Origin: Candidatus Saccharimonadota bacterium
GTDB taxonomy: Archaea > Nanohalarchaeota > Nanosalinia > Nanosalinales > Nanosalinaceae
Length of the DNA: 32,000 bases
Assembly: GCF_047555085.1 (NCBI RefSeq)
Contig: NZ_CP180230.1
Coordinates: 1,014,239 to 1,046,238 of the forward strand
Direction: 5' to 3'
The position numbers were made by a program, and so were the translations under genes. The notes under the pieces are model-generated. The model ran no database searches. It was not told the DNA's origin and saw nothing but the letters and a program-made list of their open reading frames with translations. Shown here in pieces: positions 1-32,000 of this stretch; position 1 is the first letter of the stretch; the number at the start of each line of letters is the position of its first letter.

Positions 1-143
1 GTTACAGCACTGAAGAAAAAAGCAGTGTAGAAGAGGAAGACATCGATCTTGTAGTCGAGAAGACAGGTGCTTCAAGGGAAGAAGCAGAGCAGGCTCTTGA
101 AGAAAACGACGACGTTGCAGGCGCAGTAATGAGCCTCAACTAG
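1..143 (+). CDS. nac: nascent polypeptide-associated complex (NAC) protein, C-terminal fragment (5' end outside window)
   Basis: Frame 3 reads ...EEDIDLVVEKTGASREEAEQALEENDDVAGAVMSLN* and ends at TAG 141-143. This is the UBA-like C-terminal tail typical of archaeal NAC. Confidence 0.7.
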   Translation, partial: YSTEEKSSVEEEDIDLVVEKTGASREEAEQALEENDDVAGAVMSLN

Positions 144-163
144 TCACCCATCACAGATCCAAA

Positions 164-182
164 TTCTTTTCTTTTCAAAAAT
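164..182. terminator. candidate bidirectional oligo-T terminator between convergent nac and secD
   Basis: There are T4 runs at 167-170 and 172-175 on the + strand. A5 at 177-181 gives T5 on the - strand. The element lies in the 52-nt spacer between two convergent stop codons. Archaeal terminators are oligo-T tracts. Confidence 0.3.
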
Positions 183-195
183 ATTCTGAAGGCCT

Positions 196-1833
196 CTACT
201 TCTCCATATGTTCAAGGATCTTGGAGTATGCAGGCCTTGTGATAGTTATTCCTACAAGGATTCCAAGTATTGTTGTAGTTGCGAACTCTGTAATCTGCTG
301 TAGAGATGAAAGAGGGAATGTTGTAGCGAATGCTCCTACTGTAAGCGCCATTGCTCCTACGGCAATATAGTGCCTTCCAGCGCTGCTTTTGTACTGGCTG
401 TATCCTATCAAGCCTAGTCCTGCTGCTCCCACCATCATTGCAGAGAATCTTGGTGAGAGTATTGGCACCATCGCTCCGATTGTGGAGGCTGCAGAAGTGA
501 ATATAACGAAGAAAGCTGTCTTCATCCTCTGCTTCCAGTCCTTGACTGTTTTCCTGTCGGATTCATCTGTTATAATTATCTGGTCGTCTACTCCCGTACC
601 TACCGCAGCGATTATTCCTGCTATCGCTGAGAGGCTGAGTGTTGCAAAGCTTGTGAACCAAAGGCCTAGAAGTATGAATACCTCTGAAGCACCCGTCAGG
701 ACTATAGGTGCGACAAGCTTTGGATTGCGGTATCTTACAAAGATGAGCACTCCTACAGCGAGCAGTGCTCCGATTATCGATAGAATTGAAGCTGCCATGA
801 ACTGGCCTCCGAGCGAGCTTCCGAGGCTTGATGTGCTGACGATTTCAACAGGCTCTGGAAGCCTTCCGGACTGAAGTAAGGCCTCGATCCTGTTCATTTC
901 CTCTCTGGCAGCTCCTCCAGAATCTCTTGAGATGGTTATACTTGGATTGGTTATTGTGTTTCTCTGGAATTCTTGAGATACTGTGAATCCTGTGATGGCT
1001 TCGCTGTCGATGAATATCGTCAGTTCTGCCGGGCGACCGTTCTTCATCTGAAGGGAACCGCCACCGCTTGCTGAAGGAGACACATCATAATTATTGGCTA
1101 CATCCATCAGTCTCTGGGCGGACGTCTGTGAAACAGTTAGAGGTATCTGCCCCTGATATGTATTCTGTGCTACCTGGCGGACAGCAGACTGTGAAGTCCT
1201 TACATTGAGTATATCTGTGTTATCGTAGATCTGGAACTCCATTCTTGTGTATGAACCGTTCTGACCGGCGTAGTATACTCTTGTGTCCCCGAGCTCCTGA
1301 TGATCTCCCTGTTCCAGAGTCTTATTGTAGTATTCCAGGCCTGAATCTGTGTAACGACCTATACTTACTGTTGAATCATTGTTCTTGACGAAACGGTATG
1401 TATCAGATAAAGTGAAGTTGCCCGAGTCTGAGAAAAGATATGGCATCCGGGCCTCAAACGCTCCTTCTCGGGAGATAAGCTGCTGCAAACGAGTGTTGTT
1501 CTGTTCAGAAGTTGTAACGCTGATTCGATGTCCTGTACCGATGTCTATAGTATTAATAGTGGTTTCTCCGAATCCTATCTCATTTACACGTGTTCTGAGG
1601 ATTGATGCGATGTTCTCAACCAGTTCCTCCGATTGATTCTCGGACTGAACCTTTAGAAGGAGCTGTGAACCTCCAGAAAAGTCTATACCCATGTTATCTT
1701 CAAGGCCTGTGAACTCCAGATTGTAGTTGCCGTTGTTCGATGTGTATGTTGGCTGGAGGCCTGCTACGGAGAAAGCAAGGACTACAAGCAACAGTATTAC
1801 ACGCCATTCCTTGAGCATATTTTTTACGGCCAT
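196..1833 (-). CDS. secD: protein-export membrane protein SecD
   Basis: 545 aa. It has an N-terminal TM helix, a large extracytoplasmic domain and a C-terminal multi-TM block with a SecD/F-type GTGVDDQIIITDE segment. It overlaps the upstream secF by 10 nt. ATG start at 1833. Confidence 0.85.
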   Translation of the reverse strand: MAVKNMLKEWRVILLLVVLAFSVAGLQPTYTSNNGNYNLEFTGLEDNMGIDFSGGSQLLLKVQSENQSEELVENIASILRTRVNEIGFGETTINTIDIGTGHRISVTTSEQNNTRLQQLISREGAFEARMPYLFSDSGNFTLSDTYRFVKNNDSTVSIGRYTDSGLEYYNKTLEQGDHQELGDTRVYYAGQNGSYTRMEFQIYDNTDILNVRTSQSAVRQVAQNTYQGQIPLTVSQTSAQRLMDVANNYDVSPSASGGGSLQMKNGRPAELTIFIDSEAITGFTVSQEFQRNTITNPSITISRDSGGAAREEMNRIEALLQSGRLPEPVEIVSTSSLGSSLGGQFMAASILSIIGALLAVGVLIFVRYRNPKLVAPIVLTGASEVFILLGLWFTSFATLSLSAIAGIIAAVGTGVDDQIIITDESDRKTVKDWKQRMKTAFFVIFTSAASTIGAMVPILSPRFSAMMVGAAGLGLIGYSQYKSSAGRHYIAVGAMALTVGAFATTFPLSSLQQITEFATTTILGILVGITITRPAYSKILEHMEK

Positions 1834-2756
1834 GGGATCACCTCACGAAGATCAGGTACATTGAAGTCTCCTTCAACATACTTTTTCAGTATGAATGCGT
1901 TGCCGAACCAAGTGAACGGCATATCTGCCAGAAGGCCTATCACCATGACTGATGCAACGGCTGAAAGTTCTGAAGGCCCTACAAGAGCCATGGAGATAAA
2001 GTACAGAAGTGTGAAAGCTGCTATACCTCCCGAACTCATAGTTACTCCCGTCTTGACTGAGCTCCAGATCCTGTCACGCAGAGAACCTCTCTTCTGCTTC
2101 AGAACTCTTGAAGACAGAACAATATCGGTATCAACAGAGTATCCGATAAGCATCAGTAACGCCGATAGAGAACCGAGCGTCATCGGAATATCAAGAAGCG
2201 ACATAGCCGCTATAGTAAATATTATATCTGCAGACGCCGCAAGGACGACAGCAAATGCTGGCACAAGATCTCTGAACGAGGTGAAAATCACCAGGCTCAT
2301 GATTGTAAACGCTAGTATAAAAGCCCATACGGCCTGTATGAAAAATGTTTCAGCTACTGCACTGGTGGCAAAGTAGAACTGCTGGACATCGACATTAAAG
2401 TTCTTTATCGAGTTGTTCTCAAGGAAAGATTCGGCTACAGACTCGTTTTCCAGCTGTGGAGGCGGCACTGTAACTCTAAGTATAGGCCCGCTTTCAGTTT
2501 CCTCTCTCAAAGCACTTGTACCAGGCCTTCCCTGAGAGGCAAAAATCTCTTCTATCTGTACCGTATCGAACTCTTCCTGTATATTATATGTTACTTCTGT
2601 TCCTCCCGAAAAGACTACTCCTCTGTCGACAACGTTACCGTTAGCTGCGTACTGGCCTCCTATAACAGCTAGAGACAGCACGAAAAGTAGAACCGGGATG
2701 ATAAACCAGCGATCATAATCCGCATAGATCCTGTTAAAATATTCCTCTACGTTCAC
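1824..2756 (-). CDS. secF: protein-export membrane protein SecF
   Basis: 310 aa. It has an N-terminal TM helix, a loop domain, and a C-terminal TM bundle with a SecF-like GYSVDTDIVLSSRVLKQK motif. The start is GTG at 2756. It is paired with secD. Confidence 0.85.
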   Translation of the reverse strand: MNVEEYFNRIYADYDRWFIIPVLLFVLSLAVIGGQYAANGNVVDRGVVFSGGTEVTYNIQEEFDTVQIEEIFASQGRPGTSALREETESGPILRVTVPPPQLENESVAESFLENNSIKNFNVDVQQFYFATSAVAETFFIQAVWAFILAFTIMSLVIFTSFRDLVPAFAVVLAASADIIFTIAAMSLLDIPMTLGSLSALLMLIGYSVDTDIVLSSRVLKQKRGSLRDRIWSSVKTGVTMSSGGIAAFTLLYFISMALVGPSELSAVASVMVIGLLADMPFTWFGNAFILKKYVEGDFNVPDLREVIPWP

Positions 2757-2881
2757 TAAACGAAATTTTCTCCTGTAAACATTTTAAACTCACCGGAGAT
2801 TTTGAGGCCTCTGAAGAAAAATCTCGGCAAATTATTTTTCCGATGGACTAAAAAATGTGAAGACTAATTTAGCGAATAAGT

Positions 2882-5545
2882 ATGAGTCTGGAGCGATACA
2901 AGGAAAAAGTAAAGGATAATTTTTCAAGAGAAGGCCTCAAAAATAACTGGGCGTTTCTAGCCGTTGCAGCAGTTTTCGGAGTCGCTCTATGGCTCAGATA
3001 TCTTCCTGAACAGGGAATGCAGAATCTTCAGGCCCTGGATCCATACATGATCTTCAGGATGTCCCAGCATCTGGCATACGAAGGAGCTATGCCTGTAGCA
3101 GACTTTATGAGGTACTTCCCTTACAGCGCTCCAACTTACCTACTTAATATAGGAGATATCGTCTTCCCTGCTATACTTTACTGGATGGGGCCTTCGATGA
3201 TTTTCGAGAACTATCTTGAGTGGGCGCAGTTCTATCCTGCTCTTATGGGTGCTCTATCTACTGTTGTAATGTACTTTTTCGGTAAAGAAGTTGCAAACAA
3301 GCGTGTAGGAATTTTCTCAGCCTTTTTCCTAGCTGTAATCCCTGGCGTGATGCGTCGTTCATCCGCAGGATTCTTCGAGAAAGAGCCTATCGGGACGTTC
3401 TTCATGATGCTGACACTGCTCTTCTTCGCAAGAGCATGGAAGCGTGAAAGCTACATTTCGGGAATACTTTCAGGCCTCTCACTTGCATTCTTCACAATCT
3501 CCTGGGGAGGATCCCGGATGCTATGGCTGCTTCTTCCTCTCGTAGTCGGCTCCCTGATATTCATAGACGAGGAAGTCCACGAACTGATCGTTGCTTACAC
3601 GCCGACAGTGCTTGTAGGAGGCGGAGTGGCAGCAGCACTCAACTACAATCGTTACTGGATCACAGGAACACTTTTCGTCGCAAACATCGGCCTCTTGGGC
3701 CTGCTGTGGAGCAGATACCTGATCGAGGAACTTGATCTCGTCAAGGAAAAGAATCTGAAGTACTACGTTCCAACAGTCTCAATAACAGGCCTCATCTTTG
3801 TACTGCTTTCACCACTCTACTCCAACTTCATCGCCTCCAAACTGATGAGCATTATTAACATGGTGACTCAGACGACAGGAGGAGATGTCATCGGAGGAAC
3901 AGTCGCAGAAAACACAGCTCCAGGCCTCTCAAATCTTATAACAAGCCTTGGAGCAGAGACAGCTGGCAGCATCCATCCTGTTCTCGGAACTTTGGCCAGC
4001 ATAGTAGGTTCATGGCCTATGATGATGCTGGGAATAGGATTCATGGGCTCAACAGTTGCTTTCATGCTTCTAAAGAAATACGGCCTTGTAGAAAGCGAGG
4101 TAAGCGACAAGATCTACTTTGCAGGCTTTGAAACAGTTTTCCTATCCTGGATGCTTCTTGTAACAGGCTTCTTTGAGCAACTGCTGATCTTCAGCGCTCT
4201 AGCCGCATTAACAGTTATCGGAATGTTCATAGCGTTCACAAAGTACCTCGACGACGACTACACGTTCAAGCTTGTGACAATGGTGACCGGAACAGGCCTC
4301 GTGCTTGAGATACTGATGCTTTTCTCCGGTGCACAGATAGCGTACACCGTCATCCCTGCAACAGCTCTCGTGCTGGCAGGCCTTGTAGCACTTTACTACA
4401 ACGACAGGCTTGGAAGCAGAGAAATCGAGATGGAGTGGATAATCGTGCTCCCTCTTGCATGGGTGATCACAAATCTGCTGGGATCAGTTGCGAAAAGCAG
4501 GATAATCTTCCTTTCAACCTTTGCAGTGGCATTCGCAGCAGGATACGGCCTCGCCAAGATTATCGGAGGCCTCGAAAACATGGATCTCAACGAAGTGTTC
4601 GAGTTCGAGAACACTGAAAGACTTAAGTACGCTGCAATAGCGATCATACTAATTTTAACTGTTGCAGTGAACTTTTCAGCAGGATTTATCAACGTTCAGA
4701 GTGTTAGCGGATCCCCTAACCAGGCCTGGGATCAGAGCCTGAACTACATGGATGAACAGACTCCTGACGGATCAGTAGTCATGTCCTGGTGGGATTACGG
4801 ATACCATTTCCAGACAATCGGGAGAACTGCCTCTGTAGCGGACGGAGGAAACGCTGGATACTACTCGAACGAAGTTAGAGCAACGAACATGCCTCTGGCT
4901 GATTTCCTGACTTCCGATGATCCTATGAATACTCCAGGCCTTGACAGTTTCCTGGAGCAACATTCCGTGGATTACATACTGCTCGATAATACAATGATCG
5001 GGAAGTACAGTGCAGTGAGCACAATTTCAAACGGAGCAGCCAATCTCCCTAACGAGTCCACAGGAGATCCTAGCTCAATGCTTACACTGTCCACTTCAGC
5101 AAACATACAGGACTCCATAAGCCAGAGCGGAAACACGACAACAGTAACATTCACAAGCTCTAGAGGCCTGCAGATCTATGCACCAGTACAGATCTCCAAC
5201 AACAGCATCTCTCTATCAGATGAACAGGCCCCGACACTACAACAAACGACAGGCAGAGGAACAGTCAGACAGCCTATTGACTGCATACTTACAGAAAACG
5301 GAAAGATAGAGTTCGATGTCGACACCCAGATCCCTTACTGTCTCGCAGAGGATCCTTACTTCAATCTGGAAAGAGGATTCCAGACACGACTACAGGCCCA
5401 GTCAGTGCTTGTACCGAAGGAGATCTCGGACTCCCAGCTTGTAGAGCTTTACATCCAGGATGGAGAACAGCTTGACTACGTTGAAAAAGTAGAAGAGGCC
5501 TCTAACGACTACGTCAAGATGTGGAAAGTGACTAAGACAGAATGA
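2882..5545 (+). CDS. aglB: dolichyl-phosphooligosaccharide-protein glycotransferase, STT3/AglB family
   Basis: 887 aa with about 13 N-terminal TM helices. The catalytic WWDYG motif is encoded at 4787-4801. A DK/MI-type segment LLDNTMIGKY follows downstream, then a soluble C-terminal domain. Confidence 0.9.
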   Translation: MSLERYKEKVKDNFSREGLKNNWAFLAVAAVFGVALWLRYLPEQGMQNLQALDPYMIFRMSQHLAYEGAMPVADFMRYFPYSAPTYLLNIGDIVFPAILYWMGPSMIFENYLEWAQFYPALMGALSTVVMYFFGKEVANKRVGIFSAFFLAVIPGVMRRSSAGFFEKEPIGTFFMMLTLLFFARAWKRESYISGILSGLSLAFFTISWGGSRMLWLLLPLVVGSLIFIDEEVHELIVAYTPTVLVGGGVAAALNYNRYWITGTLFVANIGLLGLLWSRYLIEELDLVKEKNLKYYVPTVSITGLIFVLLSPLYSNFIASKLMSIINMVTQTTGGDVIGGTVAENTAPGLSNLITSLGAETAGSIHPVLGTLASIVGSWPMMMLGIGFMGSTVAFMLLKKYGLVESEVSDKIYFAGFETVFLSWMLLVTGFFEQLLIFSALAALTVIGMFIAFTKYLDDDYTFKLVTMVTGTGLVLEILMLFSGAQIAYTVIPATALVLAGLVALYYNDRLGSREIEMEWIIVLPLAWVITNLLGSVAKSRIIFLSTFAVAFAAGYGLAKIIGGLENMDLNEVFEFENTERLKYAAIAIILILTVAVNFSAGFINVQSVSGSPNQAWDQSLNYMDEQTPDGSVVMSWWDYGYHFQTIGRTASVADGGNAGYYSNEVRATNMPLADFLTSDDPMNTPGLDSFLEQHSVDYILLDNTMIGKYSAVSTISNGAANLPNESTGDPSSMLTLSTSANIQDSISQSGNTTTVTFTSSRGLQIYAPVQISNNSISLSDEQAPTLQQTTGRGTVRQPIDCILTENGKIEFDVDTQIPYCLAEDPYFNLERGFQTRLQAQSVLVPKEISDSQLVELYIQDGEQLDYVEKVEEASNDYVKMWKVTKTE

Positions 5546-6666
5546 TCTTCCTTGCTGTATCCCTGGCACTAGGATTCCTGACGACGTTCGTAGGAACACC
5601 ATATGCCAGGAAATACCTCCTCAGCTCCGGAATATACGGGGTAGATCAGCAAAAGAAGGAAAAGCCAAAACTGGCGACATCCGGAGGAATAAGCGTAGTC
5701 TTCGGATTTATAGTATCGCTTACAGTGTACCTAGGCCTTATATCTTTCTCAAGCGCTCCTGCCTCGAATATAACTCTGATACTCGCTGCCTTAAGCTCTG
5801 TATGCATAATCACGTTGATAGGCCTAGTTGACGACATACACATCAACATAGAGAAGTATGTGCAGGACGAACTTGAGATAGAGGAGTTTGAACTTGATCT
5901 CTCAAATGAAAAAGAAAGTAAAACCCCTTTTGCAAAGATATGGGAACGCATCACAGTATTTGAGGAGAATGAAAGGGAACAGGAAGTACACCGTGAAGGC
6001 CTCAAACAGAACCTGAAAATGCTTTTCGTACTTCCAGCAGCGCTTCCGTTGATCTCCGTAGGAGCCGGCTCATCAGTAATGACTCTTCCAGTAATCGGGA
6101 CAATCGAATGGGGAATCCTTTACCCTCTTCTACTGCTTCCGGTAGGCCTATTGTTCGTATCAAACGTGGTAAACATGCTTGCAGGGACTAACGGGCTCTC
6201 CGGAGGGATGAGCCTCGTAGCTTCATTCTATCTTGGCCTCTTCGCGTACCTTAACGGAGAAACAGCTGCAATGCTGATAGCATGGAGCCTTACAGCATCA
6301 CTGCTTGCTTTCATGTACTACAACTTTTATCCTGCCTCGATACTTCCAGGAGATTCTCTAACATACCTGTGTGGTGCAGCACTTTTCGCAGCGATGGTGA
6401 TAGGAAACATGGAGAAATTCGGCGTATTCCTATTCATCCCATGGATTACAGAGTTCCTTCTGAAACTCAGAAGCGGATTTCAGGCACATTCCTGGGGAAT
6501 ACTTCAAGATGATGGAAGTCTGAGGCCTCAGCACGAGAAAATTTACTCTTTAACTCATCCGCTAATGAATAAAGGCCTGAATGAAAAACAGATAACTGTG
6601 GCTCTAATGAGTGCCGAGATAGTTATAGGTGCTGTTGGTATTTTGCTTTTCTCGGGGATTCTGTAA
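5542..6666 (+). CDS. polyprenyl-phosphate N-acetylhexosamine-1-phosphate transferase (MraY/WecA/AglH family)
   Basis: 374 aa polytopic membrane protein with the family motifs LVDDIH and VVNMLAGTNGLSGG. Its start overlaps the aglB stop (ATGA at 5542-5545). Confidence 0.8.
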   Translation: MIFLAVSLALGFLTTFVGTPYARKYLLSSGIYGVDQQKKEKPKLATSGGISVVFGFIVSLTVYLGLISFSSAPASNITLILAALSSVCIITLIGLVDDIHINIEKYVQDELEIEEFELDLSNEKESKTPFAKIWERITVFEENEREQEVHREGLKQNLKMLFVLPAALPLISVGAGSSVMTLPVIGTIEWGILYPLLLLPVGLLFVSNVVNMLAGTNGLSGGMSLVASFYLGLFAYLNGETAAMLIAWSLTASLLAFMYYNFYPASILPGDSLTYLCGAALFAAMVIGNMEKFGVFLFIPWITEFLLKLRSGFQAHSWGILQDDGSLRPQHEKIYSLTHPLMNKGLNEKQITVALMSAEIVIGAVGILLFSGIL

Positions 6667-6695
6667 AGTTCAAATAGAAGTTTACGGGAAAATGT

Positions 6696-7073
6696 TTATT
6701 CCTCGTCTTCTTCACGCTCTTCCTTGTAAGGATCTTCTACGCGCGTGATATCTCCCGGTACGTAAGGGAACGAGATCTCAAGAATTTTGGCAACTTCGCT
6801 ATCGATATTCTGGATCTGATGCCTTTCATTCGAACGGATAACCATGGCATTGCCCTTTTCAATATCCTTCATATCTTCTTCATGACGGATAACGACGTTA
6901 CCTTCCTCCAGATAAATTATATCGGCCTGACGCTCGTGATAGGCGTAGGAAGTCATCTCATCTGCATCTATAACAAGTCTTCTGATTCCTAGCATACCTG
7001 TCTGGTCGCCGACATCGACCTGAGTCATGAGAACCTGTTCCTCAAATCCCCAGGGCTTGTCAATACGTCCCAT
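6696..7073 (-). CDS. cupin-domain protein (type II phosphomannose-isomerase-like small cupin)
   Basis: 125 aa. It has an N-terminal KPWGFEE motif and a cupin-like H/E pattern (YHERQADIIYLEEG ... NERHQIQN). It lies in the same minus-strand run as the epimerase gene upstream of it. Confidence 0.55.
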   Translation of the reverse strand: MGRIDKPWGFEEQVLMTQVDVGDQTGMLGIRRLVIDADEMTSYAYHERQADIIYLEEGNVVIRHEEDMKDIEKGNAMVIRSNERHQIQNIDSEVAKILEISFPYVPGDITRVEDPYKEEREEDEE

Positions 7074-7098
7074 ACCTACCTTATGGAATTAAAACTTC

Positions 7099-8037
7099 TT
7101 ATACGTGTTTACTGTAGTACTCCACAGTCTTCTCAAGGCCTTCCTCGAAGCTGTAAGAAGGAGACCAGTCCAGAAGACGCTGAGCCTTTGAATTATCCGC
7201 ATTATGCTGATGCACATACTTGTCACGCGGATTTTCAATTCTCTCGGCATCAATATCCGTTCCCAGAGCATCGTTAAGCTTCTCAACAACTTCATTGAAA
7301 GTTACAGGATCACCGCGTCCAACATTGAACACTTCTCCATCAAGCTCATCCTTTCTCTTAGAGGCCTTGATCAAGGCATCCACAACATCTTCAACGAAGA
7401 CGAAGTCTCTCTCCTGAGATCCATCTCCCCATATGACAGGCTGCTCATCATCCATCATCTTCCAGAGGAACTGAGTAACCACGTTAGCATACTTTCCTTT
7501 AGCTCTTTCATGAGGCCCGAAAACAGAGAAAAATCTCAGGCCTGTGGTCTCCATCTGATTATTGTAACTGTAGGCCTCCGCATACTTTTCACGCGACATC
7601 TTCGAAGCAGTATAAAGATTCGAAGGCACAGGATTCTGATCCTCCCTGTGAGGCGGCTCCACGCTTCCATACATCGAAGAAGTGGATGCGTAGACAACTT
7701 TCTCGACTTCTTCATCCTTTGCAGCTTCAACTGTCTTGATGAATCCTTCGATATTTACTCGCGCACCTTCAGCAGGATTTTCTTTGTGCATCGGACTGGA
7801 TGAACGTGCTGCCAGATGGAAAACAGTATCAACTCCCTGCATAGCCTCCTCTACAGTTTCTTCATCGAGTACAGATCCCTGTACAAACTCAATATCATTT
7901 TCAACTTCTGAAAGATTGTTCTCATCCCCAAGATAGAGATCGTCGAGTACAACTACGTCTTTGCCTCTTTCAACAAGTTCTTCTACAAGATTTGAACCGA
8001 TGAATCCTGCTCCACCTGTAACCAGCACTCTTTCCAT
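7099..8037 (-). CDS. NAD-dependent nucleotide-sugar epimerase/dehydratase (extended SDR)
   Basis: 312 aa with a TGGAGFIGSNL Rossmann motif, ASTSSMYG, the catalytic YTASK (Y-x-x-x-K), and LRFFSVFGP. Confidence 0.85.
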   Translation of the reverse strand: MERVLVTGGAGFIGSNLVEELVERGKDVVVLDDLYLGDENNLSEVENDIEFVQGSVLDEETVEEAMQGVDTVFHLAARSSSPMHKENPAEGARVNIEGFIKTVEAAKDEEVEKVVYASTSSMYGSVEPPHREDQNPVPSNLYTASKMSREKYAEAYSYNNQMETTGLRFFSVFGPHERAKGKYANVVTQFLWKMMDDEQPVIWGDGSQERDFVFVEDVVDALIKASKRKDELDGEVFNVGRGDPVTFNEVVEKLNDALGTDIDAERIENPRDKYVHQHNADNSKAQRLLDWSPSYSFEEGLEKTVEYYSKHV

Positions 8038-8071
8038 AGTATAGATTAACCTCTAGCAAAATTTATTAGAT

Positions 8072-9265: not shown

Positions 9266-9351
9266 TCACCCGAAAAACACACATGGTAATATGATGTATT
9301 ACTTTTTGTTTTTAAATGTGTTTCCATGCGTGCAGAAAGATGCGAGGAAGC

Positions 9352-23594: not shown

Positions 23595-24460
23595 TTTATC
23601 TTGTCCTCGTTATCTGTTAACTCCAGAATTTTATCATAAAAATCCGTGATATGCGGAGTCTCATCTCCAAACAGCTCTCTATTACATGAATAAAAAGCAT
23701 TCTTGTTATGTTCATGTGGACCTGATTTTTTCTCAGGACGACCATGATCCGACATGAAAATCACAGTCCACTCATCACCATACTCCTCAAGAATCTGCCC
23801 GGCAATATCATCAAGTCTTTCATATTCTTCTTCTAAATCTCCAAGACCTGTATCCTGAAACGCATCAGGGTCATGAAGATGAAGCATGATAAAATCCCAA
23901 AAATCCTTTGAAACATCAAAGAAAGCAGGCTGAGTAGCAGTCCCCTGGCGCAACCTTACTTCAGTATCATGTCTAGACTCTTCTACAAACCTTTCTTCTC
24001 CATAATATCTTACAACCGCATGAGGTAAAGCCACGAGCCAGTACATAGAAGGATTATAACTAGGAACATACAGCGGCAATGAAGCATCAATCTCTTCAAA
24101 AATAGTCTCTACCTGCAAATCATCTCTTATATAATTAGTATCCTCCAAGGACTTGCTTTGCTTAATTACATCTCTCAAAGTCCGAAATCCACGAACATGA
24201 CTGACCAAAAAATCAGGAATCAAGTGCTTCGAAATCTTATCTCTAAAAGTAAGCTTCTTCGAAAGGCCTTCAACGCCATGGTCTCTGTAAGTTTCACCTG
24301 TAATAAACGAAGCGAAAAGCTCACTAGTCATCCTATTCTTGATTCCAGTAGAATTATCTATATCCCCGAACTCCTCTTGTGGGATATTTTCAAGATCAAA
24401 CTCTTCTACCAGTTCTTTATCCATTCCATCAAAAGCCACAACTAGAACATTTTCCGTCAT
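23591..24460 (-). CDS. alkaline-phosphatase-superfamily protein, NPP/phosphodiesterase-like (short form, paralog B)
   Basis: 289 aa with VAFDGMDKELV, MTSELFASFITGETYRDHGV, HLHDPDAF, IFMSDHGRP and HEHNKNAFYSCNR. Confidence 0.7.
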   Translation of the reverse strand: MTENVLVVAFDGMDKELVEEFDLENIPQEEFGDIDNSTGIKNRMTSELFASFITGETYRDHGVEGLSKKLTFRDKISKHLIPDFLVSHVRGFRTLRDVIKQSKSLEDTNYIRDDLQVETIFEEIDASLPLYVPSYNPSMYWLVALPHAVVRYYGEERFVEESRHDTEVRLRQGTATQPAFFDVSKDFWDFIMLHLHDPDAFQDTGLGDLEEEYERLDDIAGQILEEYGDEWTVIFMSDHGRPEKKSGPHEHNKNAFYSCNRELFGDETPHITDFYDKILELTDNEDKIK

Positions 24461-25180
24461 TTATTTCCACACCGCTGTTATGACTTTAACATCTCTTTCC
24501 TGGATTTCTTCGTCTTCCTCAGCTTCCTCTATACTCTCAATCTCATATCCGAGTTCCAGTATTTTCTCTTTAACTTTTTCTGTTGGCGAATCAAAAACAC
24601 CATGAGTCTCCACTATCAATACTTCAGGCCGAATTTCAAGACTATCCAGTATTTTCAACTCAGCTCCTTCCACGTCAATTTCTAGAACATCACATTCGGG
24701 AAGATCCTCTACAGGCATAACTTCGGCGTTCATCTCTTCCCCGAACAGGTTCCCTTTCTCTCCTACAATTTTGTGATGAACTGAAATATCTTCTTTTTCG
24801 TTAAATCTCAGCGTCCTTCGAATCTTTTCGACCTGCTCACCACTTGCCTCATATACAGAAACATTTTCAGGTGAAGTTATCTCTGCCGCATGAACTGCAG
24901 AAACACCTAGGCCTCCACCTATAATTATGACTTCGTCTCCAGAAGATACATTTTTCTCAAGGGAATTCAAAATCCCTTTTTCGTAAGTCTCATTGTTCAG
25001 TTCTTTCAGATCTAGAGAGGGTTGGAAAAACCTTGCTGAAGGCACTTCTACACCATTATAAACTCCCTTTCTAAGAGGCATAACTTCTTCCAAAAAATTC
25101 TGGTAAACGAACCTCATACCTCTCTTCAATAATAGAGAAATTCCTCCTTCTTTCACGGCTTTCCGAACTTTATTTTTCAT
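24461..25180 (-). CDS. class I SAM-dependent methyltransferase-like protein (FkbM-like)
   Basis: It has a Rossmann motif VIIIGGGLGVSAVHAAE, an acidic VYEASGEQ segment and the FkbM-like VLEIDVEGAELKIL. The preferred start is ATG 25180; the track start at 25189 is GTG. Confidence 0.5.
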   Translation of the reverse strand: MKNKVRKAVKEGGISLLLKRGMRFVYQNFLEEVMPLRKGVYNGVEVPSARFFQPSLDLKELNNETYEKGILNSLEKNVSSGDEVIIIGGGLGVSAVHAAEITSPENVSVYEASGEQVEKIRRTLRFNEKEDISVHHKIVGEKGNLFGEEMNAEVMPVEDLPECDVLEIDVEGAELKILDSLEIRPEVLIVETHGVFDSPTEKVKEKILELGYEIESIEEAEEDEEIQERDVKVITAVWK

Positions 25181-26162
25181 TTTTCTCACTGGTTGAATTA
25201 TCTCTTGATTCTTTTTCAGAATACCTGTCCATTATTTCTTGAAATTCTTCAGAAAATTTCGAAATAGAATTTTCCTTCTCAAAATTTCCTAATTTGTTCT
25301 GAAGCTCTTCCAAAATTTTTTCTCTAGCTCCATCTCCAAGGTCTGCGTATTTTACTCCTTCTGCAAGATCTTCAGCATCAAATTTTCTGATTAGGTTTTC
25401 GTCCACATTTCTTACGATTTCTTTGGCTCCGACATTCTCTGTGACTACAGGGATGCTTCCTGCGGCTATGGCTTCGAGTACTGAGATTCCGAAGGCGTCG
25501 GCTCTAGACGGTTGTACGTAGATTTTCGATGTTTTGAGTTCGTGTATGAGTTTTTCTTCTGGTACGTAGCCGAGGTTTTCGACATTTTTGTGGTATTCAA
25601 GGTCTGTCTTGTTTCCGATCAGCTTGGCTTGAAAATCTCCTTTCTCTGCTGCTTCCTCGAGTACGTCGGTTCCTTTCCAGCCGTTTTTTCTGGTGTGTCT
25701 GGCGACTGTTAGGATTCCTTCTCGTTCTTCTCCTGTTTCTTCCATTAGTTTTTCTTTCCTTTCCTCGTCGATGTACGGATTGATGACTTTGATCGGGCAG
25801 TCAAGGAAAGTTTCTGCCTGTTCTTTGATCCATTCAGAGTCTGCGATTGCTCCGTCAACCTTTTTTGCAGCCCATTTTTCGCCTTTCATTGCATCGTGAC
25901 CGTTCTGAATCATATAGTAAGTTCCTCCAACTATCATACGAACTATTTTTGTCCCAGGCCGGATTTGTTTATGGAGTGCTGCTGTTCTGGTGCTTCCTGA
26001 ATCTTCGCAGAGAAGTACATCGTACTTGAAGAGTTTTGGATGAATAGCCTGAAGAATTCCTAACTTTCCATGCTTTATCTGCATGAAGTCTGCGTCGACT
26101 GATTCTGCCCATGAGGAATGTACTTCATGTGGCTCTCCATTATGTAGGAATAAAACATCCAT
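25170..26162 (-). CDS. GT-B fold glycosyltransferase (GT4 / Glycos_transf_1)
   Basis: 330 aa with the C-terminal donor-binding motif ADAFGISVLEAIAAGSIPVVTENVGAKEIV. Confidence 0.8.
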   Translation of the reverse strand: MDVLFLHNGEPHEVHSSWAESVDADFMQIKHGKLGILQAIHPKLFKYDVLLCEDSGSTRTAALHKQIRPGTKIVRMIVGGTYYMIQNGHDAMKGEKWAAKKVDGAIADSEWIKEQAETFLDCPIKVINPYIDEERKEKLMEETGEEREGILTVARHTRKNGWKGTDVLEEAAEKGDFQAKLIGNKTDLEYHKNVENLGYVPEEKLIHELKTSKIYVQPSRADAFGISVLEAIAAGSIPVVTENVGAKEIVRNVDENLIRKFDAEDLAEGVKYADLGDGAREKILEELQNKLGNFEKENSISKFSEEFQEIMDRYSEKESRDNSTSEKNEK

Positions 26163-26219
26163 TCTGTAAACTAGTTATTGAAGCGAATAGATAAAAGACA
26201 TCTGAACGAATTCCAGGAC

Positions 26220-27308
26220 ATGAGGATTGCTGTTGTTTATCCTAGGATCAGTCGTGGAATAGGCGGGATTGAGTCTGTTACTGATGAGATTCTTTCAGAG
26301 TTATCAGAAGAGGATGATGTTGTTTTCTTTTCTGTGGTCCCGGAGAAGTTTAGAGAGTCTCTGAGTGAGGAAGTTCTAGGGCGGATTGAGGTCAGGGATG
26401 TTGGATCGAATATTCGTATTCCTCTGCGTGATTCGGAGCGTTTCCAGTTGTTGAAGGAGAAGCTAATTCATAGAAGAATCGGAAGCTTCATGGAGGAGGA
26501 AAGCGGAGATTTTGACGCAGTTGTTTTTTCTGCGAAGTTCATGTATTCGGGGAATTTTGACTGTCCGACCATCCAATATGTTCATAATCCGAGTGTAAGT
26601 TTTCAGCGGAGTGAGTATTCCTCCAATCCTCTGAAATCTGTTTATGATAGTTTCCTGAATTTTCTCAGTTCTGACGTATTTGATGCAGACCTGAATCTGT
26701 TTAACTCAGAGTTCACACGTGAAACGTACTCCAGTATTTCAGGAGACGTCCTGTATCCACCTGTAGAATCCGATTTTTTTCCAGGCGATAAGGAGGATAG
26801 AGTCATCTGTCTGGGCCGGATTGCAAGGAATAAACGTATTGATGAGGCTATCGATATCGTTGCTTCTACCGAAAAAAATCTTGAGATGACAGTGATGGGT
26901 AGAACTACAGAAGGTACGCCAGAGTCTTATTTACAGAAACTTGAAAGCCGGGAGAAAAAATACGACTGGCTGGAGATCAAAACGGATGTTCCTCAGGACG
27001 AACTGGTTAAAGAAATGGCTAAGTCAAAAATCGGTATTCTAAGTACGAGGAATGAGCATTTTGGCATCGCTGCCGTGGAGTACATGAAGGCTGGTGCGCT
27101 TCCAATGGTACACAGTAGTGGAGGTGTCCAGAGCTTAGTGAATAAAGACAGATTCACGTATGAATCAATAGGAGAGGCCTCAGAAAAGATTGATGAGAAT
27201 CTCGGAGAATACGATGAGTTGAGAGATTTCGTTATTGAACGCGGGAAAGATTTTGATGTAGAAAGTTTCAGAAAAGGAATCAGAGAATCAGTGAACGGTA
27301 TTACCTGA
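26220..27308 (+). CDS. GT-B fold glycosyltransferase (GT4 / Glycos_transf_1)
   Basis: It carries the motif NEHFGIAAVEYMKAGALPMVHSSGGVQSLV. I set the start to ATG 26220 (MRIAVVYP...); the track start at 26178 is TTG. Confidence 0.8.
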   Translation: MRIAVVYPRISRGIGGIESVTDEILSELSEEDDVVFFSVVPEKFRESLSEEVLGRIEVRDVGSNIRIPLRDSERFQLLKEKLIHRRIGSFMEEESGDFDAVVFSAKFMYSGNFDCPTIQYVHNPSVSFQRSEYSSNPLKSVYDSFLNFLSSDVFDADLNLFNSEFTRETYSSISGDVLYPPVESDFFPGDKEDRVICLGRIARNKRIDEAIDIVASTEKNLEMTVMGRTTEGTPESYLQKLESREKKYDWLEIKTDVPQDELVKEMAKSKIGILSTRNEHFGIAAVEYMKAGALPMVHSSGGVQSLVNKDRFTYESIGEASEKIDENLGEYDELRDFVIERGKDFDVESFRKGIRESVNGIT

Positions 27309-28374
27309 ATTCTTCAATAGCTTTTTCTAAAGCTGAGGTGCCTTTATCTAAAGATATATATTTTTCTGAAGTTTCAGGATTTTTCTTGAGTAAATTTTGG
27401 AGCTCAGAAGCATCTCCCTCTCTAAAAATTTTTTCTTTATCCAGTAGTTCTTTTGCGCCGGCTGCTTCTGTTGTGATTGCTGGAGTGCTGTAGTGCAGGG
27501 CCTCGTTGATGACTAGGCCCCATGGATCGTGATGTGTTGGGAGTACGAATAGATCCGCTGCATCAAAGTAGTTTGCTTTCTCCTGCTCCGATAAGTAGCC
27601 GACAAACTCTATCCTGTCGTCCTCTGAGGCCTTTTTCTTCAACTGTTTTTCGTATGGGCCTGTTCCTGCAATTACAAGCGTGTAGTCCTCATCGTCAATT
27701 CTCCGAAAGGCCTCAATTAAGTCTTGTACTCCTTTTCTTTCTTCTAGGTATCCTAGTGATAGGATCATTTTTTGGCCTGAGTAGTTCTCCTTCAGATCGT
27801 GATTTTCCGGCTCCGGCAGTAGTTTTTCCGGCATTACTTGTATCTGTGTCTCGATTTTTTCCTCCGCTACTCCTCTTCTCACAAGAAATTCTTCTGCCAT
27901 CTCGGAAAAGGCGACGAATCTATCGGAGAACTTGAAAAGTATTTTTCTGTAACTCTCTTTGAAGCTTCTCCAGGCCTTTACAGGTATTTTCTTGAGAACT
28001 GAGTCTGGAATTTCCCTAGATTTTTCTGTATCTATAGTTTCGCTCCAGATTACTACAGGCCTCTGTTTGAGTTTTGCTACTGTTAGAATCGCGAACGATT
28101 GTAGAAAAGTTGATGGATTCTCGTTGATGAAGTATACGTCAAAATTTTCATTTAGTAGTTTCCAGAAAAATCCTGGATTGAATGTGAGTGGGCCTAGTTG
28201 AAAATTATCCAAAATTTTGTAGTCAAAGCCGTAGTCGTCGAATTCGGCTTCCCATTCTCTTTCTTCTCCTTTCCTGTGGAACCATACTTCTACATCGTAT
28301 TCTTCATTTAGCTCCTCGAAAAGTGGAAGTCGGTACGGGGAAATAATGTTTTGATTGAAAAATATTCGAGTCAT
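27301..28374 (-). CDS. GT-B fold glycosyltransferase (GT4 / Glycos_transf_1)
   Basis: 357 aa with the motif HHDPWGLVINEALHYSTPAITTEAAGAKELL. Its 3' end overlaps the convergent GT gene by 8 nt. Confidence 0.8.
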   Translation of the reverse strand: MTRIFFNQNIISPYRLPLFEELNEEYDVEVWFHRKGEEREWEAEFDDYGFDYKILDNFQLGPLTFNPGFFWKLLNENFDVYFINENPSTFLQSFAILTVAKLKQRPVVIWSETIDTEKSREIPDSVLKKIPVKAWRSFKESYRKILFKFSDRFVAFSEMAEEFLVRRGVAEEKIETQIQVMPEKLLPEPENHDLKENYSGQKMILSLGYLEERKGVQDLIEAFRRIDDEDYTLVIAGTGPYEKQLKKKASEDDRIEFVGYLSEQEKANYFDAADLFVLPTHHDPWGLVINEALHYSTPAITTEAAGAKELLDKEKIFREGDASELQNLLKKNPETSEKYISLDKGTSALEKAIEEFR

Positions 28375-29237
28375 TCAACTAGCTCCAGAACCTTATCGTG
28401 GAAATCCATGATTTTAGGAGTTTGGTCTAGGAACAGTTCTTTGTTGGAGGAGTAGAAAGCGTTTTCGTTGTGTCCGATCTTCGCTGGCAGGCCATGATCG
28501 GACATGAATATTATGTAGTCGTAGCCTTTCTCTAGGGCCTTCTCCTTGATCTCTCCCGCAAGTTCATCCATCTCGTTGTACATTTCCCTGAGTTTCTCTT
28601 CATCGTAATTCGCGTCTTTATCGCCGTAGAGATGATGGAATGTATCTGATCTATGAAAATGCATCATTAGAAAGTCTCGAGCTGGAATAAACTCGTTTTC
28701 CAGTTCGCTGAATAATTTTTCTTTCCTGTGACTGAACTCTCTCGTGTCGTAGTGCTCCATCGTCTCTGCCGGAGTCTTTCCGAACCCTAGAGGTCTCAGA
28801 TCTGCCTCTATAGTCCAGAAGGTCGAAGGATTATACCCTGGGACAAAGATAGGCCTTGAATTATCTATCTTCTCGAAAAGTGTATCGACTTTGAGGTCTT
28901 CTTTTTCCCATTTTGTCTCTTCAGCGTCAAGTGCCGATTTCAATGTCTCTCGTACCCTATGCAGTCCTCTCTTTGTTTCAAGCAAATTTTTAGGTACTAA
29001 AGTATCCAGAATTTCTCCACGAGAATCTTTCCACTTATTGAGGCCCTCAATTCCGTGCTCTTCCCAGTTAGTGCCTGTGATAAAAGATGCGAAAAGCTCA
29101 GAGGTGTAGATATTCTTCATCCCTGTCTGGTTGTCGATCGATCCGAACTCTTCCTGCCTAATATTTTCCAGTTCAAACTCTTCAATCAGTTCTTTGTCAA
29201 GTCCGTCGAAAGCGACTACAAGTACGTTTTCACTCAT
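28371..29237 (-). CDS. alkaline-phosphatase-superfamily protein, NPP/phosphodiesterase-like (short form, paralog C)
   Basis: 288 aa with VAFDGLDKELI, YTSELFASFITGTNWEEHGI, HFHRSDTFHH, IFMSDHGLP and GHNENAFYSSNK. It is the closest paralog of 19831-20706. Confidence 0.7.
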   Translation of the reverse strand: MSENVLVVAFDGLDKELIEEFELENIRQEEFGSIDNQTGMKNIYTSELFASFITGTNWEEHGIEGLNKWKDSRGEILDTLVPKNLLETKRGLHRVRETLKSALDAEETKWEKEDLKVDTLFEKIDNSRPIFVPGYNPSTFWTIEADLRPLGFGKTPAETMEHYDTREFSHRKEKLFSELENEFIPARDFLMMHFHRSDTFHHLYGDKDANYDEEKLREMYNEMDELAGEIKEKALEKGYDYIIFMSDHGLPAKIGHNENAFYSSNKELFLDQTPKIMDFHDKVLELVE

Positions 29238-29251
29238 TTCTGTCAGGCCCT

Positions 29252-30334
29252 CTAGTTGTTATAGAGTTCTAGAAGTTTTTCAAGATGTACTTTAGGCCTG
29301 TAGTTTTGTTCATAGTCGTCACGAGAATTTTCTCCAAGAACTTTCCAGTCAACTTCTGTTGAAAGATTCCTGATCAGGCCTTCTACATCTTCTGATTTGA
29401 ATATAAATCCTGTTTCTCCTTCTTCGACAAGTTCCGGGAGACCTCCACGATCTGAAACAATTAAAGCTGAACCAAAGGCCTTGGCCTCCAAGGCAACTAG
29501 AGGATTGTTTTCTCTCCATCTAGAAGGTATCACTACGGCTTTTGAATTTCTGTAGAGCCCTTCCAGTTTCTCCTCTGACACGTATCCGTGGACTGTTACT
29601 TTTCCCATACCTGAAGATTTTTCCTCTAATTCTTCTTTCATCTTTCCTTTTCCTGCTATTTCCAGCGGCGGAATATCGTAATCATCTCCTGAGGCTTTTC
29701 TGTAGGCCTCTACAAGTAGGTCCGGTGCTTTCCCGTCTTCAAGTCTGCCGACGAAGAGGAAGTGTTCTCCCTCGTAATCAGGTTCTCGGTCGGTTACGAA
29801 GTTAGGTAGATGTGTGGATGGTGTGTATCCGTTTTCCTCCAGTTCTTGTGTTAGAGCTCTCGAAGGAGCTGTGTATCTATTTATGACGTTTTCTCTCAGT
29901 TTTTTTAGGTATCTCTGTGTGCCTCTGTCCAGTGTTTTTCTTATCTTTCTCTCAAATTGATTCATTTCATAGGCGTACTTGTCTTTCAGTGAGACGAAGC
30001 CAAAGTCATGTACAGTCTTGACAACTTTCTCCCCTCTTAGGCCTTTCAGGACTGCGACAGGAGCCACTACATTCTTATTGAGATGTACTACATCAGGATC
30101 AACTTCTTCCACAACTTGCTGGACTTCTCTCTTGATCCTTCTGTTGTAAAAGTACCTGTTCTTCAATTTAAGTACAGGATTAGAGGCCTCTTCGATACTG
30201 TAATCAGATTCATCCGAATCATCGAGCGTCAGTGTTTTGACTTCGTGATCCTCTTCAAGCTCTTCTTCAAGGCCTCTAACATAGTTCTCTGCTCCTCCAA
30301 AGGAGTAGTGGTCGTTCACTAGGAGAATATTCAT
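29252..30334 (-). CDS. GT-B fold glycosyltransferase (GT4 / Glycos_transf_1)
   Basis: 360 aa with the motif RENNPLVALEAKAFGSALIVSDRGGLPELVEEGETGFIF. Confidence 0.8.
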   Translation of the reverse strand: MNILLVNDHYSFGGAENYVRGLEEELEEDHEVKTLTLDDSDESDYSIEEASNPVLKLKNRYFYNRRIKREVQQVVEEVDPDVVHLNKNVVAPVAVLKGLRGEKVVKTVHDFGFVSLKDKYAYEMNQFERKIRKTLDRGTQRYLKKLRENVINRYTAPSRALTQELEENGYTPSTHLPNFVTDREPDYEGEHFLFVGRLEDGKAPDLLVEAYRKASGDDYDIPPLEIAGKGKMKEELEEKSSGMGKVTVHGYVSEEKLEGLYRNSKAVVIPSRWRENNPLVALEAKAFGSALIVSDRGGLPELVEEGETGFIFKSEDVEGLIRNLSTEVDWKVLGENSRDDYEQNYRPKVHLEKLLELYNN

Positions 30335-31485
30335 TTCTCTGTTTCCTCTACTACTTCATTTATTTTTTCATCGAATTTGTTAACGAATTTGTCCCAAGTG
30401 TATTCTTTTGATCTCTTTTTCCCTTTCGCTCCCATTTCCCTGACTAGTTCCTCGTCTTCAACCAGTTTTTCCATGGCTTCTGCCATCTCGTCCGAGTTAT
30501 CGACTAAGAGGCCTGTCTCGTCCTGTAGGACTGATTCTGTTGGGCCTCCTTCGTTCACGCTTATAATCGGCTTTTCGTAGCTTCCGGCTTCTATCGGAAT
30601 GATGCCCCAGTCCTCGTTGATGGCGCAGAAAAGGATTGAATACGCATTCCTGTACAGGTCTTCCCATTCGTCGCCGGGAACATCACTTTTGACTTCTACT
30701 CCTTCTATTCTTTCTGCTCGTTCCTTGATCTCTTCATAATATTCTTGCTTTTCCTCGTTGACTCCTCCGGCGATCACTAACCTGAAGTCAGTCTCGGGAT
30801 TGTTTTCCCTGAATTTTTCATATGCATCTAATGTGAGGTCCTGACGCTTGTAGTATGCGAACCTGGATGGATAGAAAAAGTAGTTGTCGTATCTGTTACC
30901 GGAGTTGTCGGATGTATCGGCTCCCGGATGATTGATCGATGTCTTTTCCTTATGGATTAAATGATCTGAAGTGGCTCTCTCCTGTGTAGTTCTTGAATTG
31001 AAGATCACGTGATCGAACAGTTTCCATGCCGGCCTTTCTATTATTTCATATACGCGTGTGGCCAGTCTGTAAAAATTCCTCTTCAGCAATCCTGAGTTCT
31101 CGATCTTGTGCCTGTATATATCCTCGTCGTGTACAGGCCTCAAAGGTGTATGACAGAATCCTATCAACGGCTTTGAGTGATTCCTGTAGTTGATGACTTC
31201 CGCGACTCCTCCTGTAGACACAACCAGCGCATCGTGTTTCTTCATCGGAAGCTTGGAGATCATCGCTCCAAGCGTAAATGTGAGGCCTCTGAAGATCTCT
31301 CCTATTATCGGTAGGCCTCCCAGCTCCACCACGTTATGCTCCTCGAACTCGTCGTACGTATCTTCCGGTACGTACTTGTTAGTATATACTGTGATGTCGT
31401 GCTCCGAGTTCTCCAGGAGCTTGAGAAGTACTTTCTCTCCACCGCCTTTGCAGTGGATCCATGCGTGGTAGATCGCCAGGTCCAT
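30331..31485 (-). CDS. GT-B fold glycosyltransferase (GT4 / Glycos_transf_1)
   Basis: It carries the motif NEDWGIIPIEAGSYEKPIISVNEGGPTESVLQDETGLLV. I set the start to ATG 31485 (MDLAIYHAW...); the track start at 31551 is TTG. Confidence 0.8.
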   Translation of the reverse strand: MDLAIYHAWIHCKGGGEKVLLKLLENSEHDITVYTNKYVPEDTYDEFEEHNVVELGGLPIIGEIFRGLTFTLGAMISKLPMKKHDALVVSTGGVAEVINYRNHSKPLIGFCHTPLRPVHDEDIYRHKIENSGLLKRNFYRLATRVYEIIERPAWKLFDHVIFNSRTTQERATSDHLIHKEKTSINHPGADTSDNSGNRYDNYFFYPSRFAYYKRQDLTLDAYEKFRENNPETDFRLVIAGGVNEEKQEYYEEIKERAERIEGVEVKSDVPGDEWEDLYRNAYSILFCAINEDWGIIPIEAGSYEKPIISVNEGGPTESVLQDETGLLVDNSDEMAEAMEKLVEDEELVREMGAKGKKRSKEYTWDKFVNKFDEKINEVVEETEK

Positions 31486-32000
31486 ACAGAAGTATTGTGT
31501 GATGTAAACTTGAAGTTTGTTACGCGAGAGATGAGAGAAGACTGAACACAAAACGGAACAATCCCTCGATAAATCTTCCGATCCCTAGAACGATGGCAGC
31601 AATCAGATTTGCCACTGCCTCGTGAGAATCCTTCGCGTCTGATCGTCGATGGTGTGAATGACTCACTGATCTACAGTTCCGAGTGAAGATTTTTGAACTA
31701 GACGGAAGGCCTCTTTTTAGTCATAACTAAGTAACATCTCCACTTGAAATCAGGGGGTGGTTTTGGTAGATAATCGATGGATAAATTCAGAGAAACTCTT
31801 AGCTTCAAGCCTGAAACTCAGATCGTTTCGAGAAGTTAGTTTGAGGCCTGGAACTCGAAGAGAAATTTCTAGAATATAGATAGTTTCTAGAAAGATCAAG
31901 GAGTAATCACGGCAGATGAAAATCGAGTGTCAAGTGCAGATGAACCAGAGGTCAAACGACAGGTGTCTGGAAAAACGTGTTTTCAGGCCTTGTTCCGTAC

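Follow-up and report, generated by a model that had tools for sequence, protein, structure and literature searches.

Why should a stretch of archaeal DNA carry one palindromic hexamer, AGGCCT, every few hundred bases, in genes and spacers alike? The stretch in question is a 32,000-base window (W, the reference locus for all comparisons) from Candidatus Nanosalina sp. VS9-1 of the phylum Nanohaloarchaeota; the window AglB is 100% identical to the VS9-1 protein. A first-pass annotation had estimated about 98 copies, or one per roughly 330 bp, and the exact count is indeed 98 (one per 327 nt; 3.06/kb). The answer developed here is that a strand-symmetric and frame-independent pressure acts for the complete hexamer, by any mutational route that produces it. 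That annotation had suggested a DNA-level selection or drive superimposed on the coding sequence. The suggestion finds strong support: spacers and all three frames are enriched, the available positions are nearly saturated, the trait is limited to one clade, and some sites owe their existence to amino-acid changes.

Excess of the complete hexamer in genes and spacers

Dinucleotide-preserving shuffles of the window give 6.30 ± 2.44 copies of AGGCCT (maximum 13), and Markov models of order 0, 1, 2 and 3 expect 5.9, 6.4, 18.3 and 45.5. The hexamer ranks first both by count and by order-2 z-score (18.7); those next in rank, GGCCTC, GAGGCC and CAGGCC, are overlaps of AGGCCT itself, and all other palindromic hexamers have at most 28 copies. 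A maximal-order (order-4) Markov model, proposed earlier as a check, expects 94.9, near the observed value. This is uninformative and no refutation, because the conditioning pentamers consist mostly of AGGCCT itself: AGGCC (116 copies) and GGCCT (135) lie inside the hexamer in 84% and 73% of cases, respectively, and both are 5-6 times over expectation. All that the order-4 result says is that, once a GGCC core is present, the 5' A and the 3' T hardly depend on each other. Sorted by flanks, the NGGCCN words of the window number 98 with A and T, 18 with A but not T, 37 with T but not A, and 12 with neither. The one-step relatives at the outer positions are scarce, as had been reported, although the exact range is 2-13 copies each rather than 5-12. 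AGGC that is not part of the hexamer shows no excess (65 cases not followed by C, versus ~76 expected).

The earlier observation that all four bases occur on either flank of AGGCCT needs qualification, since base use there is uneven: at +1, C is over-used and A under-used, with composition near background beyond ±1. Some copies extend into longer palindromes, as had been noted, with GAGGCCTC found 16 times and TTGAGGCCTCAA once, at 13673. With no extended consensus in its flanks, AGGCCT does not belong to a dispersed repeat; repetitive extragenic palindromic (REP) elements and miniature inverted-repeat transposable elements (MITEs) were rejected on this ground and because the sites lie at orthologous codon positions.

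Twenty-eight genes were called in the window, among them secD, secF, aglB, folD, genes for a GT4 glycosyltransferase, epimerases, a formyltransferase, sulfatases and a flippase, and many further glycosyltransferase genes. Synonymous codons were shuffled within each gene, keeping each protein and each gene's codon usage (the gene model used here began folD at 12195, the T of an AGGCCT copy, with an ATG at 12201). This null gives 13.3 ± 3.4 coding copies (maximum 22), against 91 observed. All three frames are in excess: 17 versus 3.1 expected for AGG-CCT, 24 versus 2.9 for xAG-GCC-Txx, and 50 versus 7.2 for xxA-GGC-CTx. The last, Gly-Leu frame holds 51% of all sites (50/98), and it had rightly been assigned 9 of the 11 aglB sites and 4 of the 6 secD sites. 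Gly-Leu dipeptides number 84 where 71 are expected; 62 of the 84 are written GGC-CTN, though GGC makes up 24% of Gly codons, and A precedes in 50 of these 62.

Non-coding DNA had been described as equally dense in the hexamer, and with a conservative call of open reading frames (ORFs) the window has 4.2 copies per kb in non-coding DNA versus 3.0 in coding DNA. Seven of the eight copies that had been listed as non-coding proved to be so; the eighth, at 13676, has that status only if the formyltransferase does not start at TTG 13684 (Table 2). Spacers pooled over four related loci contain 31 sites in 8 kb, an observed/expected ratio (O/E) of ~29. With three frames enriched and spacers at least as dense as genes, the signal resides at the DNA level.

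These counts bear directly on the possibility of an artefact of coding or repetition, in which the hexamer would reflect a Gly-Leu motif or favoured codon pairs, or would travel in a dispersed repeat or mobile element. The prominence of the xxA-GGC-CTx frame would be its natural product. Yet the excess stands over a null that preserves protein and codon usage, the two other frames each exceed that null 6-8 times, Gly-Leu frequency with codon usage does not explain the excess and leaves the spacers aside, the flanks are unconserved past ±1, and the sites recur at orthologous positions in independent assemblies. The tests refute this explanation, and we give it next to no weight.

We call a position permissive if AGGCCT can be written there without changing the protein, namely at R-P, at K/Q/E-A-F/L/S/Y/C/W, or at an amino acid with an A-ending codon followed by G-L. 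In the core genes on both sides of a sparse central segment (the 'island' described below), 77 of 98 permissive positions (79%) carry the hexamer, and nine genes in the dense zone at 1-16400 have 100% of theirs occupied. The pressure has written AGGCCT into about 80% of the positions that the proteins allow, and into spacers, and has occasionally forced amino-acid replacements (KS>RP, RS>RP, IAI>IGL, VAL>VGL, RGF>RGL and KCY>EAY are behind some sites).

Distribution and conservation among relatives

Syntenic contigs of relatives were gathered via their AglB proteins (Table 1), and codon alignments of six orthologous genes were made between W and the relatives. Density splits sharply by AglB identity: the four loci at 72% or more (W, L003, L005, L091) hold AGGCCT at 16-20 times the level expected from composition, while the six relatives at 64% or less have 0-0.44 copies per kb. 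We conclude that the trait is a derived one, limited to a single subclade. Its presence in assemblies made independently by several projects excludes an artefact of assembly. Such an on/off distribution is consistent with the gain of one factor.

Table 1. Density of AGGCCT in the window and in syntenic loci of relatives, ordered by AglB identity
Locus	AglB identity	AGGCCT per kb	Remark
Window	100%	3.06	
L003	81%	3.77	one per 265 nt
L005	74%	2.43	
L091	72%	3.32	
L007	64%	0.18	
L092	64%	0.20	
L008	61%	0.44	J07AB43 scaffold
L009	49%	0	
L010	46%	0.13	Nanohalobium constans
L011	44%	0.07	

Permissive positions in the orthologous genes are occupied to 79% in W, 79% in L003/L004, 50% in L005 and 0-8% in the outgroups. 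The outgroups mostly retain the same peptides (Gly-Leu, Arg-Pro and similar) in other codons, e.g. AGGACT, AGGTCT, AGGGCT or CGGACT, with Gly as GGA, GGT or GGG. Permissive positions themselves are ~25-30% commoner in the clade than in the outgroups, so the proteins have evidently shifted somewhat. Polarising the W/L003 differences with L005 reveals sites gained through A>C, T>A, G>A and T>C and through multi-base changes.

Existing sites outlast neutral synonymous positions by far. At amino-acid-identical positions W and L003 share 19 of 22 AGGCCT copies, compared with 36% of control hexamers in the same frame (p = 2e-6), and W and L005 share 10 of 16, compared with 27% of controls (p = 0.003); the third genome pair gave no significant difference. 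Third codon positions are near saturation between the compared loci (identity 0.41-0.65), and AGGCCT is conserved past the neutral synonymous expectation. The strain pairs L005/L006 (21 single-nucleotide polymorphisms) and L003/L004 (one) differ too little for a selection test.

One-base neighbours of the hexamer were counted across the 89.7 kb of the four clade loci together and set against those in outgroups. Variants at the outer positions have O/E 1.6-3.2 in the clade versus 0.2-0.8 in outgroups, and variants at positions 2 and 5 are unchanged (0.9-1.1). For the central positions, AGGTCT/AGACCT has O/E 0.62 in the clade versus 1.12 in outgroups, AGGGCT/AGCCCT 0.47 versus 1.01, and AGGACT/AGTCCT, hardly changed, 0.88 versus 0.95. 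As a transition and a transversion neighbour are equally lost, a drive acting purely through deamination and repair fits poorly.

Spacing of the sites, a further check proposed at first pass, is more even than random, with coefficients of variation of 0.65-0.93 in W, L003, L005 and L091. Within the site-rich stretches of the four clade loci, only 3 pairs of sites lie within 25 bp of each other, where uniform placement predicts 21.4 ± 4.3, and all three are in L091. Permissive positions in the outgroups show no deficit of this kind (35 close pairs observed versus 27.8 expected, as a per-locus sum), and the clade genomes have 24 close permissive pairs, of which ~9 would be doubly occupied by an estimate from the occupancies. 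There is thus modest evidence that close AGGCCT sites show diminishing returns or interference.

A second word, the trinucleotide GGT/ACC, is depleted in the same clade. Its O/E is 0.32-0.53 in the four loci rich in AGGCCT versus 0.84-1.15 in all seven non-enriched relatives, and it is by far the most shifted trinucleotide (ratio 0.45, a ~2.2-fold depletion; the next is at 0.84). All eight tetramers that contain it are among the ten most depleted, and it is present in 26 of the 30 most depleted pentamers. The loss is strand-symmetric and spans frames (O/E by frame 0.43, 0.38 and 0.50 for GGT; 0.29, 0.26 and 0.46 for ACC), with usage of GGT for Gly going from 28% to 12% and of ACC for Thr from 21% to 6%. 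Replacement takes many routes: GGT gives way to GGA, AGT, TGT, GGC and GAT, and ACC to ACA, ATC, GCC and ACT. GGTC/GACC falls to O/E 0.27 in the clade versus 0.86 in outgroups, and AGGTCT is the least depleted of the NGGTCN contexts, the loss of GGT words being context-independent. Because AGGC outside the hexamer is not enriched, simple GGT>GGC conversion does not connect the AGGCCT excess with the GGT/ACC loss.

Short palindromes had been said to be normally avoided in prokaryotic genomes, which agrees with what is seen in the relatives. Every lineage examined has a deficit of GGCC outside AGGCCT, 1.4-14-fold in the non-enriched relatives (L007-L011, L092); L009 has 6 copies where 85 are expected, and L007 has 13 where 29 are. 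The window contains 12 GGCC that lack both the flanking A and the flanking T, versus 40 expected (~3-fold depletion), and its total of GGCC is 165, compared with 13-36 per ~20 kb in relatives. This suggests that GGCC-directed restriction or methylation-linked decay is widespread in Nanohaloarchaeota. Other short words also differ between the groups: GATC has O/E 1.27-1.76 in the clade (W, L003, L005, L091) versus 0.55-1.34 in relatives, and CGCG and GCGC are depleted further in the clade.

A pattern scan of viral contigs gave, among the matches listed, mostly chance matches or tandem repeats. One match is of another kind: L137 (IMGVR_UViG_3300047319_000951, 23248-32960), an integrase-encoding viral or integrative contig, has 29 dispersed copies of AGGCCT in 9.7 kb, ~12.6 times composition. 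Its NGGCCN table is like that of the window, its GGT/ACC O/E is 0.41, its proteome is not acidic, and it is unrelated to halophiles; no match was found among known phages. On the strength of this case, hyper-abundance of AGGCCT may exist elsewhere too.

Layout of the window and its glycan island

Copies are spread unevenly along the window, in two dense zones separated by the island (Table 2). No tRNA or Rfam features were found in the window.

Table 2. Zones of the window and AGGCCT copies outside genes
Feature	Position	Description
Dense core zone	1..16400	66 copies, 4.0/kb; first copy at 190, last at 16263
Genes of dense core zone	1..16400	secD, secF, aglB, GT4 glycosyltransferase, epimerase genes, folD, formyltransferase, others
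Sparse zone ('island')	16401..27100	12 copies, 1.1/kb, still ~5 times composition; lower-GC glycan, sulfatase and glycosyltransferase genes
Second dense zone	27101..32000	20 copies, 4.1/kb; glycosyltransferase genes and right-hand spacer
AGGCCT copy	190..195	intergenic, directly past the secD stop codon
AGGCCT copy, within GAGGCCTC	2805..2810	spacer of divergent secF/aglB
AGGCCT copy, within GAGGCCTC	12190..12195	ends 5 nt before the folD ATG (12201)
12-bp palindrome TTGAGGCCTCAA	13673..13684	holds the copy at 13676; non-coding if formyltransferase starts at ATG 13663
AGGCCT copy	14615..14620	intergenic, between FkbM-type methyltransferase and PAPS-reductase-like genes
AGGCCT copy	31707..31712	right-hand region, without any ORF of at least 60 aa
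AGGCCT copy	31844..31849	right-hand region, without any ORF of at least 60 aa
AGGCCT copy	31985..31990	right-hand region, without any ORF of at least 60 aa

The island genes (16.6-27.3 kb, of lower GC) have 13 of 32 permissive positions (41%) occupied, and the sulfatase gene at 22254-23594, whose homologues elsewhere are 82-86% identical, has zero AGGCCT. Depletion of GGT/ACC is likewise relaxed in the island (O/E 0.57-1.06, versus 0.35-0.59 in the rest of the window, where it is strongest at 1-16000 and 26001-32000). Window 18.3-31.5 kb has an orthologous counterpart in L093/L094, a glycan cluster with 72-81% nucleotide identity and 0.5 AGGCCT/kb. The genes common to both have 26 copies in W and 7 in L093, 5 of them shared, and 15 of the 21 sites specific to W involve amino-acid differences. 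DNA resident for less time carries fewer AGGCCT, and the sequence comparisons fit an island that is a variable surface-glycan cluster exchanged with non-enriched lineages and now being progressively converted. The segment at 22.2-24.5 kb is both the most similar to L093/L094 (81%) and the poorest in AGGCCT, which suggests a recent exchange with a non-enriched lineage.

Several side observations concern these genes. (i) A glycine-rich-domain protein (PF21722) encoded at 16601-18304 (-) has GGT-rich repeats (clusters of CACCAC, CCACCA and ACCACC on the + strand); here alone in the window is GGT/ACC not depleted (O/E 1.06). (ii) Three paralogous AlkP-type phosphodiesterase genes with near-identical N-termini (19831-20706, 23591-24460, 28371-29237) and two paralogous sulfatase genes (18340-19779, 22254-23594) are interleaved with GT4 glycosyltransferase genes; the surface-glycan module appears to be repeated. 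(iii) A single 397-aa ORF at 8072-9265 (-) has no Pfam match and only a faint HAD-IIB match; at its position L005 (15199-16943) and L091 (12458-14193) have separate PfkB kinase and HAD genes.

Candidate agents and known systems

Elements with much the same properties are known from cyanobacteria as highly iterated palindromes (HIPs). HIP1 is GCGATCGC, and alternate HIPs occur, e.g. GGCGCC in Calothrix PCC 7103 (PMC4390886; PMC5861425). Members of the class are at least ~15-fold over-represented, at ~500-2500 or more copies per Mb, with HIP1 reaching at most one per 350 nt. Their abundance tracks cognate, often orphan, methyltransferases, one of which accompanies each HIP in cyanobacteria; the conservation of HIP1 has been taken as evidence of selection; its one-base deviants are biased to the outer positions (Elhai 2015, PMC4390886); and HIP1 is stated to reach high abundance in cyanobacteria only. 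AGGCCT is likewise a short GC-rich palindrome, with O/E 16-20 in the four loci, equivalent to 2400-3800 per Mb. It lies in genes in all frames and in spacers and is not a peptide or RNA motif; it is shared between genomes beyond the codon or control expectation, shows its excess of one-base deviants at the first and last positions, is poor in a putative island, and is on or off between lineages. It differs in that its host is a DPANN archaeon, that its sequence is neither GCGATCGC nor a described variant, and that it is accompanied by an avoidance of GGT/ACC that has not been described for HIPs; the cognate methyltransferase, known there, is for AGGCCT a predicted one. HIP1 shows a 10-90 kb periodicity, for which a 32-kb window is too short a comparison. 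Given its non-cyanobacterial host and different sequence, AGGCCT works like a HIP but outside the HIP1 family proper.

Our favoured explanation, to which we give an even chance, is that AGGCCT is a lineage-specific, methylation-linked HIP-like element of a Candidatus Nanosalina subclade. A site-specific DNA-recognising activity would have been gained at the base of the clade, and the most plausible and most economical agent would be a candidate AGGCCT-specific (StuI-type) cytosine methyltransferase. Modified sites may then have been favoured by methyl-directed mismatch correction or a retention 'ratchet' (Elhai), by recombination, or by DNA exchange, with a net effect that would resemble selection for the full site rather than one mutational path. 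StuI-type systems (AGG^CCT) have the identical recognition sequence, and the active AgGCcT methylation system of Alcanivorax borkumensis SK2, whose genome has 1674 AGGCCT sites (PMC12128166), means that enzymes of exactly this specificity exist. No DNA-modifying enzyme was found among the genes of the 32-kb window. Two kinds of product were considered for the role and rejected: the PAPS-reductase-like protein, for which CysD/CysH-type models score below threshold and SspD gives only a faint match, and the FkbM-type methyltransferases, which fit the context of glycan synthesis.

Several considerations weigh against the methylation-linked explanation. Targets of restriction-modification are usually avoided, and a true restriction-modification system at AGGCCT would predict avoidance, not the hyper-abundance seen here. 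The MutS/MutL machinery on which Elhai's model relies may be missing from this group of archaea. The accompanying avoidance of GGT/ACC is not predicted by a methylation-linked HIP model. Finally, direct selection on a protein-binding or uptake site free of methylation explains conservation and saturation equally well.

That last alternative is a real possibility, if one on which we would not count. In it an abundant protein binds AGGCCT directly, for chromosome organisation or for self-recognition and uptake among conspecific ectosymbionts, and selection acts on the site itself. It accommodates conservation beyond the neutral expectation, sites made by any mutational route including amino-acid change, near-saturated permissive positions, and under-dispersed spacing with its deficit of close pairs; moreover, HIP1 is now proposed as an uptake or transformation-enhancing sequence, conserved and quasi-periodic. 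The DNA uptake sequences (DUS) of Neisseria and uptake signal sequences (USS) of Pasteurellaceae resemble AGGCCT in being over-represented within genes, at one or more copies per kb and with frame biases, and a self-recognition role is plausible. They are, however, non-palindromic, 9-12 nt long and served by known receptors, whereas a 6-bp palindrome with only a weak ±1 preference discriminates weakly, and both the binding protein and the uptake machinery would be hypothetical here. The transformation effect of HIP1 is also reportedly methylation-dependent, in which case this alternative may collapse into the methylation-linked explanation.

We consider improbable a drive of pure very-short-patch type, the first mechanism to be suggested for this locus, in which a 5-methylcytosine (m5C) methyltransferase acting at (A)GGCC(T) and a Vsr-like or Mig-like T:G enzyme turn AGGTCT/AGACCT into AGGCCT. 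The depletion of AGGTCT/AGACCT and of GGTC/GACC speaks in its favour. Archaea offer a precedent in M.MthTI, a GGCC methyltransferase paired with the T/G glycosylase Mig.Mth; as there and in Dcm/Vsr of E. coli, the core GGCC is a classic target of cytosine methylation. But AGGGCT/AGCCCT is as depleted as the transition neighbour, the gains in W/L003 include A>C, T>A and G>A and not only T>C (A>G) transitions, and sites are conserved well past neutral expectation. The GGTC loss is part of a context-independent GGT/ACC depletion by many routes in which AGGTCT is the least affected NGGTCN word, unlike the context-specific loss of T-containing words in the known systems. The enrichment is also an order of magnitude larger than in those systems, the Vsr effect in E. 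coli being far below 16-fold, and amino-acid changes contribute to it. A simple tetranucleotide drive (AGGT>AGGC on either strand) was rejected, as the lack of AGGC enrichment outside the hexamer argues against either form. Very unlikely, in our view, is a by-product of restriction, with GGCC cut by an enzyme that belongs to the organism, to its host or to its viruses, and a narrower methyltransferase protecting only GGCC within AGGCCT. The general depletion of GGCC in the non-enriched relatives, and in the window where neither A nor T flanks it, agrees with this scheme; protection would nevertheless account for tolerance, not for a 16-fold excess or new GGCC cores, and the unprotected half-sites are enriched rather than depleted.

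A broader reading, held tentatively and probably reaching too far, joins the AGGCCT excess and the GGT/ACC avoidance as footprints of one previously undescribed DNA-recognition system gained by the subclade, e.g. for self/non-self marking or DNA exchange of an ectosymbiont that shares cytoplasm with its haloarchaeal host. If this were true, AGGCCT would be the first archaeal HIP and the organism a tractable 1-Mb model for what HIPs do.

HIPs have so far been treated as a cyanobacterial peculiarity, their function debated after 30 years. AGGCCT provides an independent, archaeal and equally extreme case, apparently arisen inside one genus; the searchable literature yielded no report of AGGCCT enrichment in archaea, nor a paper on strain VS9-1. 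Since close relatives without the trait exist, a comparison of gene content across the boundary could identify the responsible enzyme or enzymes. The density of AGGCCT together with the depletion of GGT/ACC is a sensitive marker for lineage binning and for recently acquired DNA, and the locus illustrates how strongly codon choice in a streamlined symbiont, and even the sequence of its proteins, can be remodelled by a pressure at the level of DNA.

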